In this document: in pieces, positions 4,001-58,240 of the stretch
How the letters are laid out: each line of letters opens with the position of its first letter
Position numbering within the stretch: position 1 is the stretch's first letter
Origin: Bacillota bacterium
GTDB lineage: Bacteria; Bacillota; Dehalobacteriia; UBA4068
Direction of reading: 5' to 3'
DNA: 64,000 bases
Assembly: GCA_036733985.1 (NCBI GenBank)
Contig: DAIMZM010000001.1
Span: forward strand, 36 to 64,035
Translations under genes and position numbers: made by a program
Notes under the pieces: generated by a model
What the model was told of the DNA's origin: nothing
The model's input: only the letters and a program-made list of their open reading frames with translations
Databases searched by the model: none

Positions 4001-4053
4001 CAGCGTTACGAAGCACGAAGGCTGAGCCAGTAAAGCATTTGCCGTAAAATCAA

Positions 4054-52765: not shown

Positions 52766-53529
52766 GCGTTGGCAAAAAAAGCCTTAGCCGCCGCCACCAC
52801 CTGCCCGGTTTGCCCCGGCCCCTCAAAGCGGTGATTCGCGCCGGCTACCACCAGCAGCCGGGCCTTGAAGCGCTGGGCAAAGGCCTGGGCGTCCGCCAGG
52901 GGCGCGGTCTCATCCGCGTCCCCATGGATCATCAATAGCTCGGCCATGTCCGGGCGGCACAGGCTGAAGGCGTCGTGAGTCTGTAAATCCCGGCGGAAGC
53001 CGGGGGTCACTTTAAAAGGCCGCTGATAATCCCCCCGTACCCAGCACCAGCCCTGGGCTTCCAGCAAGGCCAGATCCTCCGGGGCGGCTTCGGCCTCGAA
53101 AAGGTTGGGCATGGTCACGGCGGCGCAGCGGAGCATGGCCTTTTGGCCCTGATGGGGTCGGAGGGCCAAATAGAGGCTGAGCAGATAAGCGCCGAAGCTG
53201 GAGCCAAAATAGCAGAGCTCCGCCTCAGGGGCCTGGGCCAGGGCAAAAACCTCTGCCGCGGCGATATCGTCCAGGCAATTGCCGATCCGGAGGCTTAAGC
53301 CCTCGTCCCGGCTTTCGCCATGGCCGGGAAAATCAAAGCAGAGATACCCCAGGCCCAAAGGTAGCAGGGCTTGCCAAAGCTCCTGATTGGTGCCGCTGTC
53401 TTTGCTGGAGCCAAAGCCGTGGCAGGCCAGGACCACCCGTCTGGCCTGGGGCGGGATTTGGTACAGGCAGGGGATGGCGTAACCGGCTTTGCCGGAAAGC
53501 TCAGTCTTGGTCATCATGGTTTCAGTCAT
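52762..53529 (-). CDS. alpha/beta hydrolase
   Basis: GxSxG nucleophile elbow (GSSFG), HG oxyanion motif (ACHGFGSS); start set at MTETMM with RBS. Confidence 0.75.
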   Translation of the reverse strand: MTETMMTKTELSGKAGYAIPCLYQIPPQARRVVLACHGFGSSKDSGTNQELWQALLPLGLGYLCFDFPGHGESRDEGLSLRIGNCLDDIAAAEVFALAQAPEAELCYFGSSFGAYLLSLYLALRPHQGQKAMLRCAAVTMPNLFEAEAAPEDLALLEAQGWCWVRGDYQRPFKVTPGFRRDLQTHDAFSLCRPDMAELLMIHGDADETAPLADAQAFAQRFKARLLVVAGANHRFEGPGQTGQVVAAAKAFFANA

Positions 53530-53726
53530 CCTGGAAGGCGTCCTTTTCCCTATTTTTCTTATATTTTCCACAATTATCACTGAAAACCTGCCTGCTCTCC
53601 CCTGATGCCGCCAGATTTTCCTTGCCCCGGGCCCTTAGGCTTAGTATAATAGCAGTAGCATCATGATAATACCTATTCCGGATTCCGGCAGGCCTGGCCG
53701 CCGGACCAGAGAGAGAGGCGGGCAAA

Positions 53727-54125
53727 ATGGCCAAATACCAAGTAAACGTCCCGGAGCTGGATATACGCTGGCGGGACCGGAAAAGGATCATCTTCGGTTT
53801 ACCCTGGACCTTTACGGTTTATTCACTGACGCCGGAAAAGCTGCTGATCGAAACCGGCCTGTTCAATAAAAAGCAGGAGGAAATCCGCCTCTACCGGGTG
53901 ATGGATCTGACCCTGAGGCGGCGGCTGGGCGAGCGCATTTTCGGCCTGGGCAGCATACACTGCTGCTCCGCGGATAAATCCACCCCGGAATTTATCATCA
54001 AGCGGATCAAGAAAAGCCCGGAGGTCAAAGAGCTGCTCTCCAATATGGTGGAAAAGGAGCGGGAAGCCAAGCGGGTGTTCAGCCGCGAATTCATGAGCGA
54101 TATGGACGGCGAAGCCATCGGCTGA
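53727..54125 (+). CDS. PH (bPH_2-like) domain-containing protein, soluble
   Basis: Bacterial PH-domain pattern (EIRLYRVMDLTLRRRLGERIFGLGSI); GAGAGAGG RBS. Confidence 0.6.
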   Translation: MAKYQVNVPELDIRWRDRKRIIFGLPWTFTVYSLTPEKLLIETGLFNKKQEEIRLYRVMDLTLRRRLGERIFGLGSIHCCSADKSTPEFIIKRIKKSPEVKELLSNMVEKEREAKRVFSREFMSDMDGEAIG

Positions 54126-54192
54126 CCCCGGCGCATAAGCAAAAATTTAGGGCGTTCCCCCTGGGGGAACGCCCTTGTTTTCTTGCGGCCGC

Positions 54193-54912
54193 TTAAATAT
54201 AGTGAATCTCCACGCTGCCCATGGTGACGGCGCCGCAGACGGTGAGCTGGGGCGCTCCCTCCTCCGGTTGGGAAAGGTACGTGTCGTTTTCCACACCGCC
54301 CAAATTGGCCCGCAGCTGATCCACGACCCGCCAGCTTCTGGGTACAAAGAGCTTGATCTCGCCAAAGCTGCAGTCCAGCTCGACTTGAGCCCCTGCCGGG
54401 CTTAAAATCGCCTGGTCAAAGAAGACGCTTAAAGCGCCGAAGGAGACGCTGAAATTCCCGCTGCTCAGGCAATCCCCATGTAAATACTTGCTGGAAGCGC
54501 CGAAGCTGACCCGGACATAGGGATTATTACCGTCAATATCCTCCCGGGTTTCCCCATGCTGCCCGTAAGGCCCGCAACCCTCCCGGCGGCGGCTGAGATA
54601 GCGCCGGCTGTTGTTCCGGAAGATGCAGGACAGGCCGATGCTGAGCAGGATAGCGGAGAGCAGCAGCAGCCAGAAGGAGATATAGGCCAGGCCCAAAGGC
54701 TGCTGGTAAATCAGATACAGCAAAGCCAGGCTGAGCAGGATGCCGAAAAATTCCCCCTTGACCGCGCTTTTGATCAGCACCGCTGCCAGCAAAATCGTGG
54801 CCAGCAGGCTGACAAAGCCGATTTGGCTAAAGCTGCCCAGCTGGCTGGCCAGGAGGAAAACCGCTGCCAGGATAAAGAAAACGCCCCAAAACCAATTCCT
54901 TTTATCATGCAT
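54193..54912 (-). CDS. LiaF-like membrane protein (N-terminal TM helices plus C-terminal DUF2154/LiaF beta-domain); putative LytTR-system membrane partner
   Basis: 4 TM segments then LiaF C-terminal-like repeats (SFGEIKLFVP...VCGAVTMGSVEI). Confidence 0.7.
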   Translation of the reverse strand: MHDKRNWFWGVFFILAAVFLLASQLGSFSQIGFVSLLATILLAAVLIKSAVKGEFFGILLSLALLYLIYQQPLGLAYISFWLLLLSAILLSIGLSCIFRNNSRRYLSRRREGCGPYGQHGETREDIDGNNPYVRVSFGASSKYLHGDCLSSGNFSVSFGALSVFFDQAILSPAGAQVELDCSFGEIKLFVPRSWRVVDQLRANLGGVENDTYLSQPEEGAPQLTVCGAVTMGSVEIHYI

Positions 54913-54944
54913 AAAAAAGCTCCTTTCTTTAATAAACCCGTTCT

Positions 54945-55400
54945 TTAATATACCCGTTCATTCAAACGCTGCCTGAGCGCCTGATAATAGCGCCGGGAAA
55001 CATAGACCTGCTTATGGCTGTTCCTGAATTTGACCAGGCTGGAGGCTGTGAGATTGACGGCGATGGAATAGACCTGCCGGGTATTGAGGATGGCGGATTT
55101 GGAGGCGCGGATAAAGCAGCGGGGCAGCAGGTTTTCCAATTCATACAAACGGTATTTGATGCGGAAAGCATCGGTATCCGTATGGGCGAAAATATCATCC
55201 CCATCCGTTTCAAAGAACAGCACCGTCTCCAGGGGGAAATAAAAGGCCTCATTGTCTTTGTAGAAGGCGATCCGGCTGTTGGCGGCGTCCTGCTCCCGGA
55301 TGAATTGGGCGATCCTCCGGATGTTTTCATCCACGCGGCCGCAGCGGATCAGCGCTTCATCCTCGGCAAGCCCGTTCACCAGTTCAATATGTACCTTCAC
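54945..55400 (-). CDS. stand-alone LytTR family DNA-binding regulator (GTG start)
   Basis: LytTR domain (FYFPLETVLFFETDGDDIFAHTD...FIRASKSAILN); GGAGG 7 nt upstream of GTG. Confidence 0.8.
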   Translation of the reverse strand: MKVHIELVNGLAEDEALIRCGRVDENIRRIAQFIREQDAANSRIAFYKDNEAFYFPLETVLFFETDGDDIFAHTDTDAFRIKYRLYELENLLPRCFIRASKSAILNTRQVYSIAVNLTASSLVKFRNSHKQVYVSRRYYQALRQRLNERVY

Positions 55401-55496
55401 CCGGCATCCTCCTTTTCTGTAGCAGTAAAAGCTTTAGCCTGGCTTCTGCCGTCATTATAACGCCTGCCGGCCGCTTTGGGAAGGGCTTTTGGCTAT

Positions 55497-55525
55497 GCGG
55501 TAAGCTTTAGGCCTCAAGCGGTAAG
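55497..55525. promoter_or_regulatory. direct repeats GCGGTAAG x2 with 21-bp phasing (plus a related GCAGTAAAAGCTTTAGCC copy at 55413-55431) in the LytTR/patatin divergent intergenic region; candidate LytTR binding sites
   Basis: Read directly; LytTR proteins bind phased direct repeats. Confidence 0.35.
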
Positions 55526-55629
55526 GATCCCGCTATCAAAGCCCGGTCCCGAAGCTTGGCCGGGCTTTGCCTCACCATTTCCGCTTTGGGCAATAGACTA
55601 TAGCAATAACGAGAGAAGGAGGGCATACT

Positions 55630-56592
55630 ATGATCGCCGTCTTAGCCATAGATGGCGGCGGTATCCGGGGGATCATCCCCGCCGCTTTCCTGGTGGAATT
55701 GGAAAGACGCACCGGCCAGCCTATTTGCCGGCTCTTCGACCTGGTGGCCGGCACCTCCACCGGGGGGATACTGGCCGCCCTGCTCACGGTTCCCAATCAC
55801 CGCAACCAGCCCAAATACTCGGCGGAGCAGGCGCGCCTGGCCTATCTGCAGCATGGGGGGGAGATTTTCCACCGCAGCCCCTTAAGAAAAGCCGCCACCC
55901 TGGGGGGCCTGACCCGGCCCAAATATTCGCCCAAAGCCCTGGAGCGGATCCTTGAGGAATACCTGGGCAAAAAGCGGCTGCATACCACTTTGACGGAAAT
56001 CCTGGTCACCGCCTACGACATGTCCAGCAGCACCCCCTGGTTTTTCAAAACCTCCTTTGCCAGAGAGCACCGGGCCCCGGCGGACGATCCCCTGCTGACC
56101 CAGGTGGTGCGGGCCACCACAGCCGCGCCCACCTATTTCCCGCCCCTGGCCATGGAAGGCCACTGCCTGATCGACGGCGGCGTCTTTGCCGCCAATCCGG
56201 CGGTTTGCGCCCTGGCCCAGGCCCGGAACATGTACCCGGAGGAGCGGGATTTCCTGGTCGTCTCCCTGGGCACCGGCCTGATCACCCATAACCGGCCCTG
56301 CAGCCAGGTGGAACGCTGGGGCACTGCGGATTGGGCCGTGCCCATCAGCTCGGTGATGCTAAACGCCGCCAGCGCCACGGTGAATTATCAGATGCGGGCC
56401 CTGGCCGGCAAGAAAAAGTATGTACGCTTCCAGGTGCTGCTGGACGGCGCTTCCAGCGACATGGACGACGCCAGCCCGGAGAATATGCTCAAGCTGGACG
56501 CCATTGCCCAACAAGCGGTGATCCGGTATGACGCCGCCCTGGACCGGGTCTGCACGATGCTGGAAGAAAAAAACCAGGCCGCCCCGGACTAG
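55630..56592 (+). CDS. patatin-like phospholipase
   Basis: GGGIRG oxyanion motif, GTSTG serine hydrolase motif, DGG catalytic Asp. Confidence 0.9.
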   Translation: MIAVLAIDGGGIRGIIPAAFLVELERRTGQPICRLFDLVAGTSTGGILAALLTVPNHRNQPKYSAEQARLAYLQHGGEIFHRSPLRKAATLGGLTRPKYSPKALERILEEYLGKKRLHTTLTEILVTAYDMSSSTPWFFKTSFAREHRAPADDPLLTQVVRATTAAPTYFPPLAMEGHCLIDGGVFAANPAVCALAQARNMYPEERDFLVVSLGTGLITHNRPCSQVERWGTADWAVPISSVMLNAASATVNYQMRALAGKKKYVRFQVLLDGASSDMDDASPENMLKLDAIAQQAVIRYDAALDRVCTMLEEKNQAAPD

Positions 56593-56702
56593 CTGCTTAA
56601 TTCCGCCAAAGCCTTGGCCCAGCAAGCCCCAGCGCCTTTAGGGCTGATACATAATCCGGCGCCGACCGCGCATACTGTTAGCATCCCAGCAAGGAGGCGC
56701 TT

Positions 56703-56933
56703 ATGGACAAAATGCAGGAAAAAAGGGACAGAAGCCTGGACTTTCTGGACGGCTGCCAAGTGGCTTCGGCCAGGGAATGCACCGGCTTGATCCAGGGTAT
56801 GCCCACGGATGAGGGGGAAACCGAATCCTATGCGGATCTCTACCCCATCCCGGAGCAACAGCCCCTGGATCCGGGGAAAACCAACCGCCAGGATCTGCGG
56901 GATCCCATTGGCAAAAACCTGAAATCCCTATAG
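56703..56933 (+). CDS. small acidic hypothetical protein (76 aa)
   Basis: AAGGAGG RBS at optimal spacing; followed by terminator. Confidence 0.5.
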   Translation: MDKMQEKRDRSLDFLDGCQVASARECTGLIQGMPTDEGETESYADLYPIPEQQPLDPGKTNRQDLRDPIGKNLKSL

Positions 56934-56937
56934 GCCC

Positions 56938-56998
56938 AAAAACCGCCGCTGTGTAACCACCCCTTTCCGGAGGGTCTAAACAGCGGCGGTTTTATTTG
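56938..56998. terminator. bidirectional terminator (AAAACCGCCGCTG...CAGCGGCGGTTTT, inner hairpin in the loop) between the small gene and convergent mutY
   Basis: 13-bp outer stem with T-tracts on both strands. Confidence 0.7.
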
Positions 56999-57016
56999 TT
57001 TGGCTCTGATAAAGCT

Positions 57017-58078
57017 TTAGAACGCTTGGCAGAAGGGCTGGAAGGCCGAGGGCAAGGCCAGCTTCCCGGCCAGCGCTTCCCTGGTGGCCCAGGTGAAGCC
57101 GGGAACCGTATCCGTACAGCTGACCACATAGCTGGTCATCTCCCAGACCACATGGGTGAACACATGCTTATAACCGGGCCCCTGCCGCATCCCGGCAACG
57201 GTGAGGCCCCAGGCGCTGAGCTGCCCCGCCGCCTCCCCAGGGGTCAAAGCCCCCTCCACATTGGGAAATTCCCAAAGCCGGGCCAGCAAGGCCCGGGCCG
57301 GCCGCTGCCGCAGGGCCACCTGATCCTGGGCCAGCAGCAGGAAAACGGTTTTCTGTTCCAGCCTTTTGGGCCTGCTTTTGGCCTTCACCGGCAAAACGGC
57401 CTGTTGGCCCCGGGCCAAGGCCTGGCAGCAGAAAGCCAGGGGGCAGAGGCCGCACTGGGGCTCAGGCTTAGGCTGGCAGATCAGCGCGCCCAGCTCCATC
57501 AGGCTTTGCGTGAAATCCCCTGCCCGGCCAGTTGGATAAACAGCTTCCAGCAGCTTGCTGATTTTCAGCTTCATGGCCGGGGCGGCAATATCCGCAGCGT
57601 CCCCGGTAAGCCTGGCCATGACCCGGAGCACATTGCCGTCCACAGCGGGCCGGGGCTGGTCAAAGCAGATGGAGGCGATGGCCCCGGCGGTGTAGGGGCC
57701 GATCCCCGGCAAGGACAGGATATCCGGATAATCCTCTGGAAAACGGTTGTTGAACTTTTCCCGGATCATCCGGGCCGCCTGTTGCAAATGCCGGGCCCGG
57801 CTATAATAGCCCAGGCCTTCCCAGAGCTTCAGCAGCTGGCCTTCGTCCAGCTCAGCCAGGCTTTGAAGATCCGGAACCGCTGCCAGGAAGCGGTTATAAT
57901 AAGGCAGGGCCGTCTCCACCTGGGTTTGCTGCAGCATGATTTCCGAAACCCAGACCCGGTAAGGGTCCCGGTTCAGCCGCCAGGGCAAAGCCCTGGCGTT
58001 TTCCTCATACCAGGCTAAAAGCGGCGCGACAATGGCCTCTAGCCCTTCCCCGCTTTTGGCGGTGTTTTCCTCGGTCAT
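57017..58078 (-). CDS. mutY: A/G-specific adenine DNA glycosylase
   Basis: HhH-GPD, 4Fe-4S Cys cluster (CQPKPEPQCGLCPLAFCC), NUDIX-like C-domain; start trimmed to MTEENT. Confidence 0.9.
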   Translation of the reverse strand: MTEENTAKSGEGLEAIVAPLLAWYEENARALPWRLNRDPYRVWVSEIMLQQTQVETALPYYNRFLAAVPDLQSLAELDEGQLLKLWEGLGYYSRARHLQQAARMIREKFNNRFPEDYPDILSLPGIGPYTAGAIASICFDQPRPAVDGNVLRVMARLTGDAADIAAPAMKLKISKLLEAVYPTGRAGDFTQSLMELGALICQPKPEPQCGLCPLAFCCQALARGQQAVLPVKAKSRPKRLEQKTVFLLLAQDQVALRQRPARALLARLWEFPNVEGALTPGEAAGQLSAWGLTVAGMRQGPGYKHVFTHVVWEMTSYVVSCTDTVPGFTWATREALAGKLALPSAFQPFCQAF

Positions 58079-58240
58079 CTTTATGAAATATCCCCCGGCA
58101 CTGGTATCAAAATTGCGGGCGGTTTCCTTGGCCCGGCTGCCAACAGTATAGCAATGTTCTTGGTAAAAGTCTATGGGGAGGCTGCCGGATCCCGGCCCCT
58201 GGAAATACTTACCGGTCAAGTTTAAAAAGGCCGGCCTGCC

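Follow-up and report, generated by a model that had tools for sequence, protein, structure and literature searches.

A putative HdrRM-type LytTR Regulatory System with paired direct repeats upstream of its own promoter in an Oscillospiraceae-like Clostridia genome

Results

A LytTR-only regulator and a LiaF-like membrane protein are encoded in a two-gene operon

The window (the whole stretch of 64,000 nucleotides that was analysed) carries on its minus strand a gene for a small LytTR protein followed by a gene for a membrane protein, and a patatin-like gene is located divergently upstream of the pair. The two minus-strand genes are annotated here as parts of a LytTR Regulatory System (LRS), together with the elements that delimit their transcript.

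54945..55400, minus strand: LRS regulator gene, 151 aa, GTG start (ORF list and Pfam)
55407..55412, minus strand: ribosome-binding site GGAGGA, 6 nt 5' of the GTG start (read from the sequence)
54193..54912, minus strand: LRS membrane protein gene, putative inhibitor, 239 aa (Pfam and AlphaFold2)
54149..54175, both strands: bidirectional intrinsic terminator, 12-bp stem with 9 G-C pairs (terminator scan)
55630..56592, divergent from the operon: patatin-like phospholipase gene (Pfam)

The LytTR domain (PF04397) occupied residues 53-146 of the regulator (E=2e-17) and was preceded by a 52-aa N-terminal extension, and no receiver or other signalling domain was detected in the 151 residues with Pfam and NCBIfam. 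The best NCBIfam match was the LytTR part of BtsR, which reached 20 bits against a cutoff of 246. All 1358 homologs of the regulator, about 150-155 aa in length, were LytTR-only proteins as well. The GTG start was also found in the close orthologs L001-L018 except L004, and the aligned position of the ribosome-binding site was kept in orthologs. The original prediction, made from the sequence of the window, of a stand-alone LytTR regulator of 151 aa with a GTG start was therefore borne out.

The membrane protein matched LiaF-TM (PF22570) with E=1e-10. In its AlphaFold2 model, which was built from a 31-sequence alignment and had a mean pLDDT of 82.6, transmembrane (TM) helices were predicted at residues 5-24, 33-52, 55-68 and 80-99, followed by a disordered Arg-rich linker and an all-beta C-terminal domain of approximately residues 132-238. 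The Pfam match and the model agree with the earlier claim that a protein with four TM helices is encoded downstream of the regulator. The further claim of a LiaF/DUF2154-type C-terminal domain held for the family but not for the individual protein: LiaF-like_C (DUF2154, PF09922) was detected at E<=0.01 in 27 of the 37 family members, with a best value of 4e-6, whereas the copy in the window gave only 13-15 bits (E=0.02-0.07), below the cutoff of 29. LiaF-TM, on the other hand, was matched in all 37 members. A PDB sequence search with the membrane protein found no relatives. The best PDB fold match of the C-terminal domain was the putative adhesin 4qrk, a weak match (E=0.018, TM 0.34-0.38) of the beta-helix/adhesin type.

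Both the N-terminus of the membrane protein (MHDKRN) and the linker that follows TM4 (RNNSRRYLSRRRE) carry positive charge. As four TM helices lie between them, we infer that the C-terminal domain is cytoplasmic and could there come into contact with the regulator.

The regulator and membrane protein genes were separated by 32 nt. The terminator started 17 nt past the stop codon of the membrane protein gene and is shared with a convergent bPH gene; because this one terminator comes straight after the membrane protein gene, the operon consists of exactly two genes. Promoter and terminator scans gave a single promoter at the 5' end and a single terminator at the 3' end. The genes around the pair encode bPH_2, alpha/beta hydrolase, NTPase, patatin and MutY-like proteins, and no kinase or receiver domain was found within several kb of the operon in the ORF list and with Pfam.

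The phased repeats are placed at the operon's own promoter

The 229-bp divergent region towards the patatin gene was confirmed, with the patatin gene starting at 55630. The octamer GCGGTAAG was found in this region at 55497-55504 and 55518-55525, 21 bp from start to start, exactly the two copies and the phasing that had been described. When the 229 bp were shuffled, any exact 8-mer repeated at a distance of 20-22 bp appeared in just 0.7% of the shuffled sequences. Comparison of promoters and a promoter scan placed these copies in a larger arrangement on the minus strand.

55514..55522, minus strand: distal direct-repeat half-site ACCGCTTGA (promoter comparison; identical in the ortholog L041)
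55493..55501, minus strand: proximal direct-repeat half-site ACCGCATAG, separated by 12 bp from the distal half-site and by 10 bp from the -35 (identical in L041)
55477..55482, minus strand: -35-like hexamer TTCCCA (promoter scan; weak, 3/6 matches to TTGACA)
55454..55459, minus strand: -10 hexamer TATAAT, 17 bp from the -35 (promoter scan)

Read along the operon strand, the order is ACCGCTTGA-12 bp-ACCGCATAG-10 bp-TTCCCA-17 bp-TATAAT, that is, a sigma-70-like promoter preceded by two half-sites and followed by a leader of about 47 nt, with a predicted 5' end near 55447, and the GGAGGA. From this layout the octamer is understood as the core of a 9-bp half-site in the LytTR operon's own promoter, and the description needs correction in that the functional unit would be two 9-bp half-sites, which on the minus strand read ACCGCTTGA and ACCGCATAG, instead of the 8-mer. 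Both half-sites fit the HdrRM/BrsRM type ACCnCTTAn. The phased repeats very probably serve the regulator as the binding site on its own promoter, and are unlikely to act as a switch for the adjoining lipase gene. Because the half-sites are located 10 bp upstream of the -35 of their own operon, positive autoregulation is the role best supported, rather than control of the patatin gene.

The same repeats could in principle be an operator for negative autoregulation, through which the regulator represses its own operon; autorepression is common among small regulators, and the sign of the regulation is not fixed by any of the computed results. We regard this as very improbable, as the sites are wholly upstream of the weak -35 TTCCCA and do not overlap it, an arrangement typical of promoters that depend on an activator, and the identical layout in hdrRM mediates activation experimentally (PMC6193735).

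A third related copy of the repeat, which had been proposed 85 bp upstream, was absent. When up to 2 mismatches to GCGGTAAG were allowed, the octamer search returned only GCAGTAAA at 55422 and GCGGAAAT on the minus strand at 55577-55584. The former lies 75 bp from the first copy of GCGGTAAG, in the predicted 5'UTR; it was rejected as a third repeat, being a partial copy of repeat plus spacer that is missing in the closest ortholog, and the segment of the leader that holds it is absent from L041.

Over the whole window GCGGTAAG was observed 6 times against 1.75 expected. Each of the four extra copies stands alone within a long ORF, so this enrichment is not regulatory. When the 64 kb were searched with three degenerate half-site patterns for other paired sites, only the operon's own pair was convincing, and the two other hits corresponded to the level expected from shuffles; no regulon target of the regulator was found within the 64 kb. 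A 10-bp inverted repeat at 55537-55569 was discarded; no T-run comes after it. The leader folded no better than its shuffles (z = -1.4), and an Rfam search of 53500-57100 gave nothing real.

The gene pair and the repeat geometry are conserved across relatives

The comparative set comprised 37 genome and 80 metagenome loci with regulator relatives of 40-78% identity, and it also took in contigs with the identical protein, together with the two homologs closest to it. In 118 of the 122 loci the regulator gene was followed directly by a gene for a homolog of the membrane protein. The genes flanking the pair varied between loci, and no recurrent neighbour family emerged: 121 neighbouring ORFs gave 136 Pfam families, none of them in more than 5 ORFs. 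Around the orthologs with 78% and 74% identity, for example, the neighbours were a Peptidase_M56 and a radical SAM protein in one case and a radical SAM protein and a seryl-tRNA synthetase in the other.

After removal of near-duplicates, 44 promoters including that of the window were compared. The spacer between the half-sites was 12 bp in 35 promoters and 13 bp in 9, and the gap from the repeat to the -35 was mostly 10 bp (n=27), with 9 bp (n=12), 11 bp (n=4) and 8 bp (n=1) in the rest. A near-consensus TATAAT was present in nearly all 44 promoters and stood out as invariant in the promoter alignment, and the -35 TTCCCA was the same in L041 and TTTCCA-like in most close relatives. The half-site consensus obtained from the 44 promoters was ACC-n-[C/G]-[T/A]-T-[A/G]-n. 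With a simple score for the pair, 56% of 43 upstream regions reached 12/14 or more, as compared with 0.1% of 3123 control windows taken from the same loci.

The closest ortholog with usable flanks, L041 (78% protein identity), had half-sites, -35 and -10 identical to those of the window. Its 12-bp spacer matched that of the window at only 7/12 positions, and ahead of the repeats the two sequences were unrelated. Such a pattern, in which the sites are kept while the spacer and the flanks diverge, is expected for sites under selection. In the ortholog with 74% identity (L042), the repeat pair was poorly recognisable. The conservation of the repeats in orthologous loci, on which the original prediction had staked its own refutation, thus came out in favour of the prediction, with the pattern found across 44 promoters and identical half-sites in L041.

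Half-site positions 4-6 differed from clade to clade: they contained GC in the window and L041, TG or GG in a Caproiciproducens-like group, TC in Lachnospiraceae and AC in Holdemanella. These differences fit a regulator and a site that may be co-evolving.

With these data, the idea that the repeat pair arose by chance and that the regulator and the membrane protein are unrelated and merely adjacent is hardly credible. It is true that an 8-mer is short and that four further GCGGTAAG octamers occur in the window, but these four are single and inside long ORFs, an exact pair at such a distance is rare in shuffles (0.7%), position and pattern of the pair are conserved across the 44 promoters, and the gene pair is kept in nearly all loci (118/122). 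The promoter conservation, the pair scores and the conserved gene pair effectively refute chance as the origin of the repeats.

The divergent patatin gene is an occasional neighbour

The patatin protein was CapV-like, with 223 bits in PADLOC and 185.7 bits in NCBIfam, the latter below the cutoff of 200. In CBASS, a CapV-type effector is found beside a CD-NTase cyclase; this arrangement was not seen here, as no cyclase ORF was present on either side of the patatin gene in the ORF list and with Pfam. By tblastn, a patatin gene was located beside an LRS only in three contigs of the same species and at one distant locus, L028, where the identity was 24%.

Because the start of the patatin gene is 105-135 bp away from the repeats, within one and the same intergenic region, one might suppose that the repeats serve bidirectional control and that the regulator also, or mainly, drives this CapV-like gene, as a lipase module triggered by envelope stress or infection. 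No plus-strand promoter was found for the patatin gene by the promoter scan at its threshold or by eye, and the lack of a good sigma-70 promoter on this strand means that the gene might need an activator. In addition, L028 has a divergent patatin-like neighbour too, and a cell-death pathway is under the control of LRS in S. mutans (PMC6193735). We nevertheless consider such control of the patatin gene unsupported and highly improbable. Both the orientation of the repeats and their spacing, 10 bp from the -35, suit the minus-strand promoter, and towards the patatin gene nothing promoter-like is seen at an equivalent distance. Upstream of the LRS in the closest orthologs (78% and 74% identity) the genes are unrelated, patatin is not among the most frequent Pfam families of the 121 neighbouring ORFs, and one extra patatin co-occurrence among about 86 neighbour genes has an estimated chance of about 0.05-0.1.

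A more far-reaching version of this idea is that in this species the LRS is wired through the 229-bp region to a cyclase-less CapV-like patatin phospholipase and that both form a transcriptionally controlled suicide or defence module, which seems to us quite improbable. If it were true, an effector that degrades membranes would be turned on when the regulator is released from its LiaF-like membrane partner (e.g., after phage attack or damage to the envelope), and the module would echo the cell-death pathway controlled by LRS in S. mutans. The sole hint of such wiring is the divergent patatin-like gene at the distant L028.

Discussion

The locus as a LytTR Regulatory System

LytTR Regulatory Systems were defined by Zou et al. 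2018 (PMC6193735). An LRS consists of a LytTR-only regulator and a co-transcribed membrane inhibitor encoded downstream, has two direct repeats of ~9 bp that are 11-13 bp apart and 4-11 bp (mostly 10) upstream of the -35, and shows positive autoregulation, which inactivation of the membrane protein sets free (PMC6193735). In their Tables 2 and 3, the repeats are ACCTCTTAG-12-ACCACTTAA for HdrRM, ACCACTTAT-12-ACCGCTTAT for BrsRM and ACCACTTAG-12-ACCGCATAG, with a 10-bp gap, for Corynebacterium uterequi.

The locus described here is an LRS by every structural criterion: the regulator contains PF04397 at residues 53-146 and nothing else that was detected, a TM protein devoid of a kinase or enzymatic domain is encoded downstream in the same operon, and the repeats have a 12-bp spacing and a 10-bp gap to the -35. 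The predicted two-gene LRS, composed of a LytTR-only regulator, a LiaF-like membrane protein and phased repeats, is supported by features that can be read directly in the window and its relatives, namely the domain architecture, the operon structure, the geometry of promoter and repeats and the conservation across relatives. LRS are widespread, yet few are known to have been characterised outside S. mutans.

By its architecture and site geometry the locus looks like the HdrRM type. As in HdrRM (SMU_1854/SMU_1855), the LytTR-only regulator gene is placed upstream of the membrane protein gene, the membrane protein differs little in length (228 aa in HdrM and 239 aa here), 9-bp ACCnCTTAn direct repeats 12 bp apart lie just 5' of the operon's -35, and the module stands alone, with no kinase. 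HdrM (SMU_1855, 228 aa) is listed with DUF2154 (PMC6193735); a domain of this DUF2154/LiaF_C type may be shared by the membrane protein here, whose copy in the window stays below the Pfam threshold. There are differences as well: the gap to the -35 is 8 bp in HdrRM and 10 bp here, the -10 here is not extended, the host has a high-GC Oscillospiraceae-like Clostridia genome, and there are no bacteriocin or competence genes near the locus. BrsRM of S. mutans would be alike in its regulatory logic, and its operon repeat is very similar (ACCACTTAT-12-ACCGCTTAT).

A possible mode of action

We estimate a probability of about 0.85 that the locus is an HdrRM-type LRS that works as a self-contained, two-gene sensory module in the following manner. 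Two protomers of the soluble LytTR-only regulator would bind the 9-bp repeats ACCGCTTGA and ACCGCATAG, and the regulator bound upstream of the weak -35 would activate its own promoter, creating a positive feedback loop. In the basal state, the co-transcribed membrane protein would hold the regulator inactive. A stimulus, possibly one acting on the cell envelope, would lift this inhibition, and the freed regulator would then amplify its own operon and turn on target genes elsewhere in the genome.

Binding of the regulator to the repeats, activation as opposed to repression, and inhibition by the membrane protein are inferred here by analogy with HdrRM and BrsRM of S. mutans, and each of these steps should be taken as probable to the extent that the analogy holds. 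For S. mutans, HdrR was reported to bind such repeats in EMSA, mutation of the repeats abolished autoactivation, and deletion of the membrane protein gene induced the operon (PMC6193735). In the parts of that paper that were searched, no physical interaction between the regulator and the membrane protein was found (PMC6193735).

Relation to other systems and significance

LiaF is an inhibitor of signalling. The LiaF of LiaFSR, from Bacillus subtilis and other Firmicutes, shares LiaF-TM and, at the level of the family, a DUF2154-like C-terminal domain with the membrane protein of the locus; LiaF, however, has as its target LiaS, the histidine kinase of a two-component system, whereas the partner here is a LytTR-only protein. 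In LiaFSR, the histidine kinase LiaS and the response regulator LiaR are found alongside LiaF, and because no kinase or receiver is nearby, the locus is not LiaFSR. Regulators of the AgrA/ComE type share the DNA-binding domain with the regulator, and their sites are alike in geometry, with 9-bp direct repeats and a 12-13 bp spacer upstream of the -35; they differ in having a phospho-receiver domain and a cognate kinase, and the regulator here has neither.

LRS of the SMU_1855 type had already been recorded in Ruminococcaceae and Clostridiales MAGs, among the S3 table matches listed (PMC6193735). The locus is thus a textbook LRS in a lineage where LRS are already catalogued; it consolidates existing knowledge and opens no new ground. 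It does provide a clean example of an LRS outside S. mutans, in an Oscillospiraceae-like anaerobe. Its main practical value is the clade-specific site consensus, ACCGC[T/A]T[G/A]n in two copies 12 bp apart, a motif that could be used for regulon prediction in a complete genome. In addition, the published promoter blueprint of LRS holds for the whole LiaF-TM/DUF2154 branch (n=44 promoters), which spans Oscillospiraceae, Lachnospiraceae, Erysipelotrichaceae and lactobacilli.

Among the database proteins we also came across one, P0221, in which the regulator and membrane parts are joined in one ORF; it may be a hint of a functional link between the two, or it may be an artefact of assembly.

The patatin gene and its neighbourhood

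The patatin gene that diverges from the LytTR operon encodes a protein strongly resembling CapV and other CBASS effectors, with 223 bits against the PADLOC model "Phospholipase effector" and 185.7 bits against NCBIfam CBASS_lipase, the latter being slightly below the cutoff of 200. When both flanks of the gene were checked, it was found to lie between the LytTR Regulatory System (LRS) and a MutY-like gene, and no CD-NTase cyclase adjoined it. Possibly, the window patatin is a defence effector, either orphan or degenerate.

55630-56592, +, patatin gene
57017-58219, -, MutY-like gene

A distant LRS with 42% identity, encoded in a Clostridia MAG (locus L028), also has a divergent patatin-like phospholipase gene, separated from the LytTR gene (at 4001) by an intergenic region of 162 bp. 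The adjacency of patatin and LRS thus amounts to two cases, the window and L028, and is statistically unconvincing.

L028, 3041-3838, -, patatin-like phospholipase gene (PADLOC, 70 bits)

Repeats in and around the intergenic region

In the orthologous promoters of L005, L007, L008, L014, L016 and L018, a third, weaker half-site (e.g., TCCTTTTAC or GCATTTTAA) was observed upstream of the LytTR gene, another 21-bp step upstream from the canonical pair, which suggests binding by three protomers in some lineages. The window promoter has no third phased half-site. Its operon 5'UTR contains a partial copy, GCAGTAAAAGCTTTAG (55422-55437), of the stretch made up of proximal half-site and spacer, GCGGTAAGCTTTAG (55497-55510); because this segment is missing in L041, the ortholog with 78% protein identity, it appears to stem from a recent local duplication and not to be a conserved site.

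The stretch from the LRS repeats to the patatin ribosome-binding site contains a perfect inverted repeat, which might serve another patatin regulator as its operator or form a hairpin in the leader. No T-run follows the repeat on either strand, and the 100-nt leader did not fold better than its shuffles (z = -1.4).

55537-55569, inverted repeat with perfect 10-bp arms, CAAAGCCCGG-13 nt-CCGGGCTTTG

The octamer GCGGTAAG is over-represented in the window, with 6 copies observed vs 1.75 expected. The four extra copies were considered as regulatory sites and rejected, as they are single and lie within long ORFs. All four read CTTACCGCC in the operon orientation. We take the excess to be an effect of codon usage or of a coding motif.

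26681, single GCGGTAAG copy within a long ORF
27622, the same
32614, the same
34758, the same

A possible fusion protein

P0221, a database protein of 407 aa found on one ENA contig, unites the LytTR regulator with the LiaF-TM membrane protein in a single ORF via a linker of ~25 aa. It is either a natural membrane-tethered fusion or an artefact of assembly or frameshift; if natural, it would resemble the membrane-tethered LRS-like regulators of Bacteroides.
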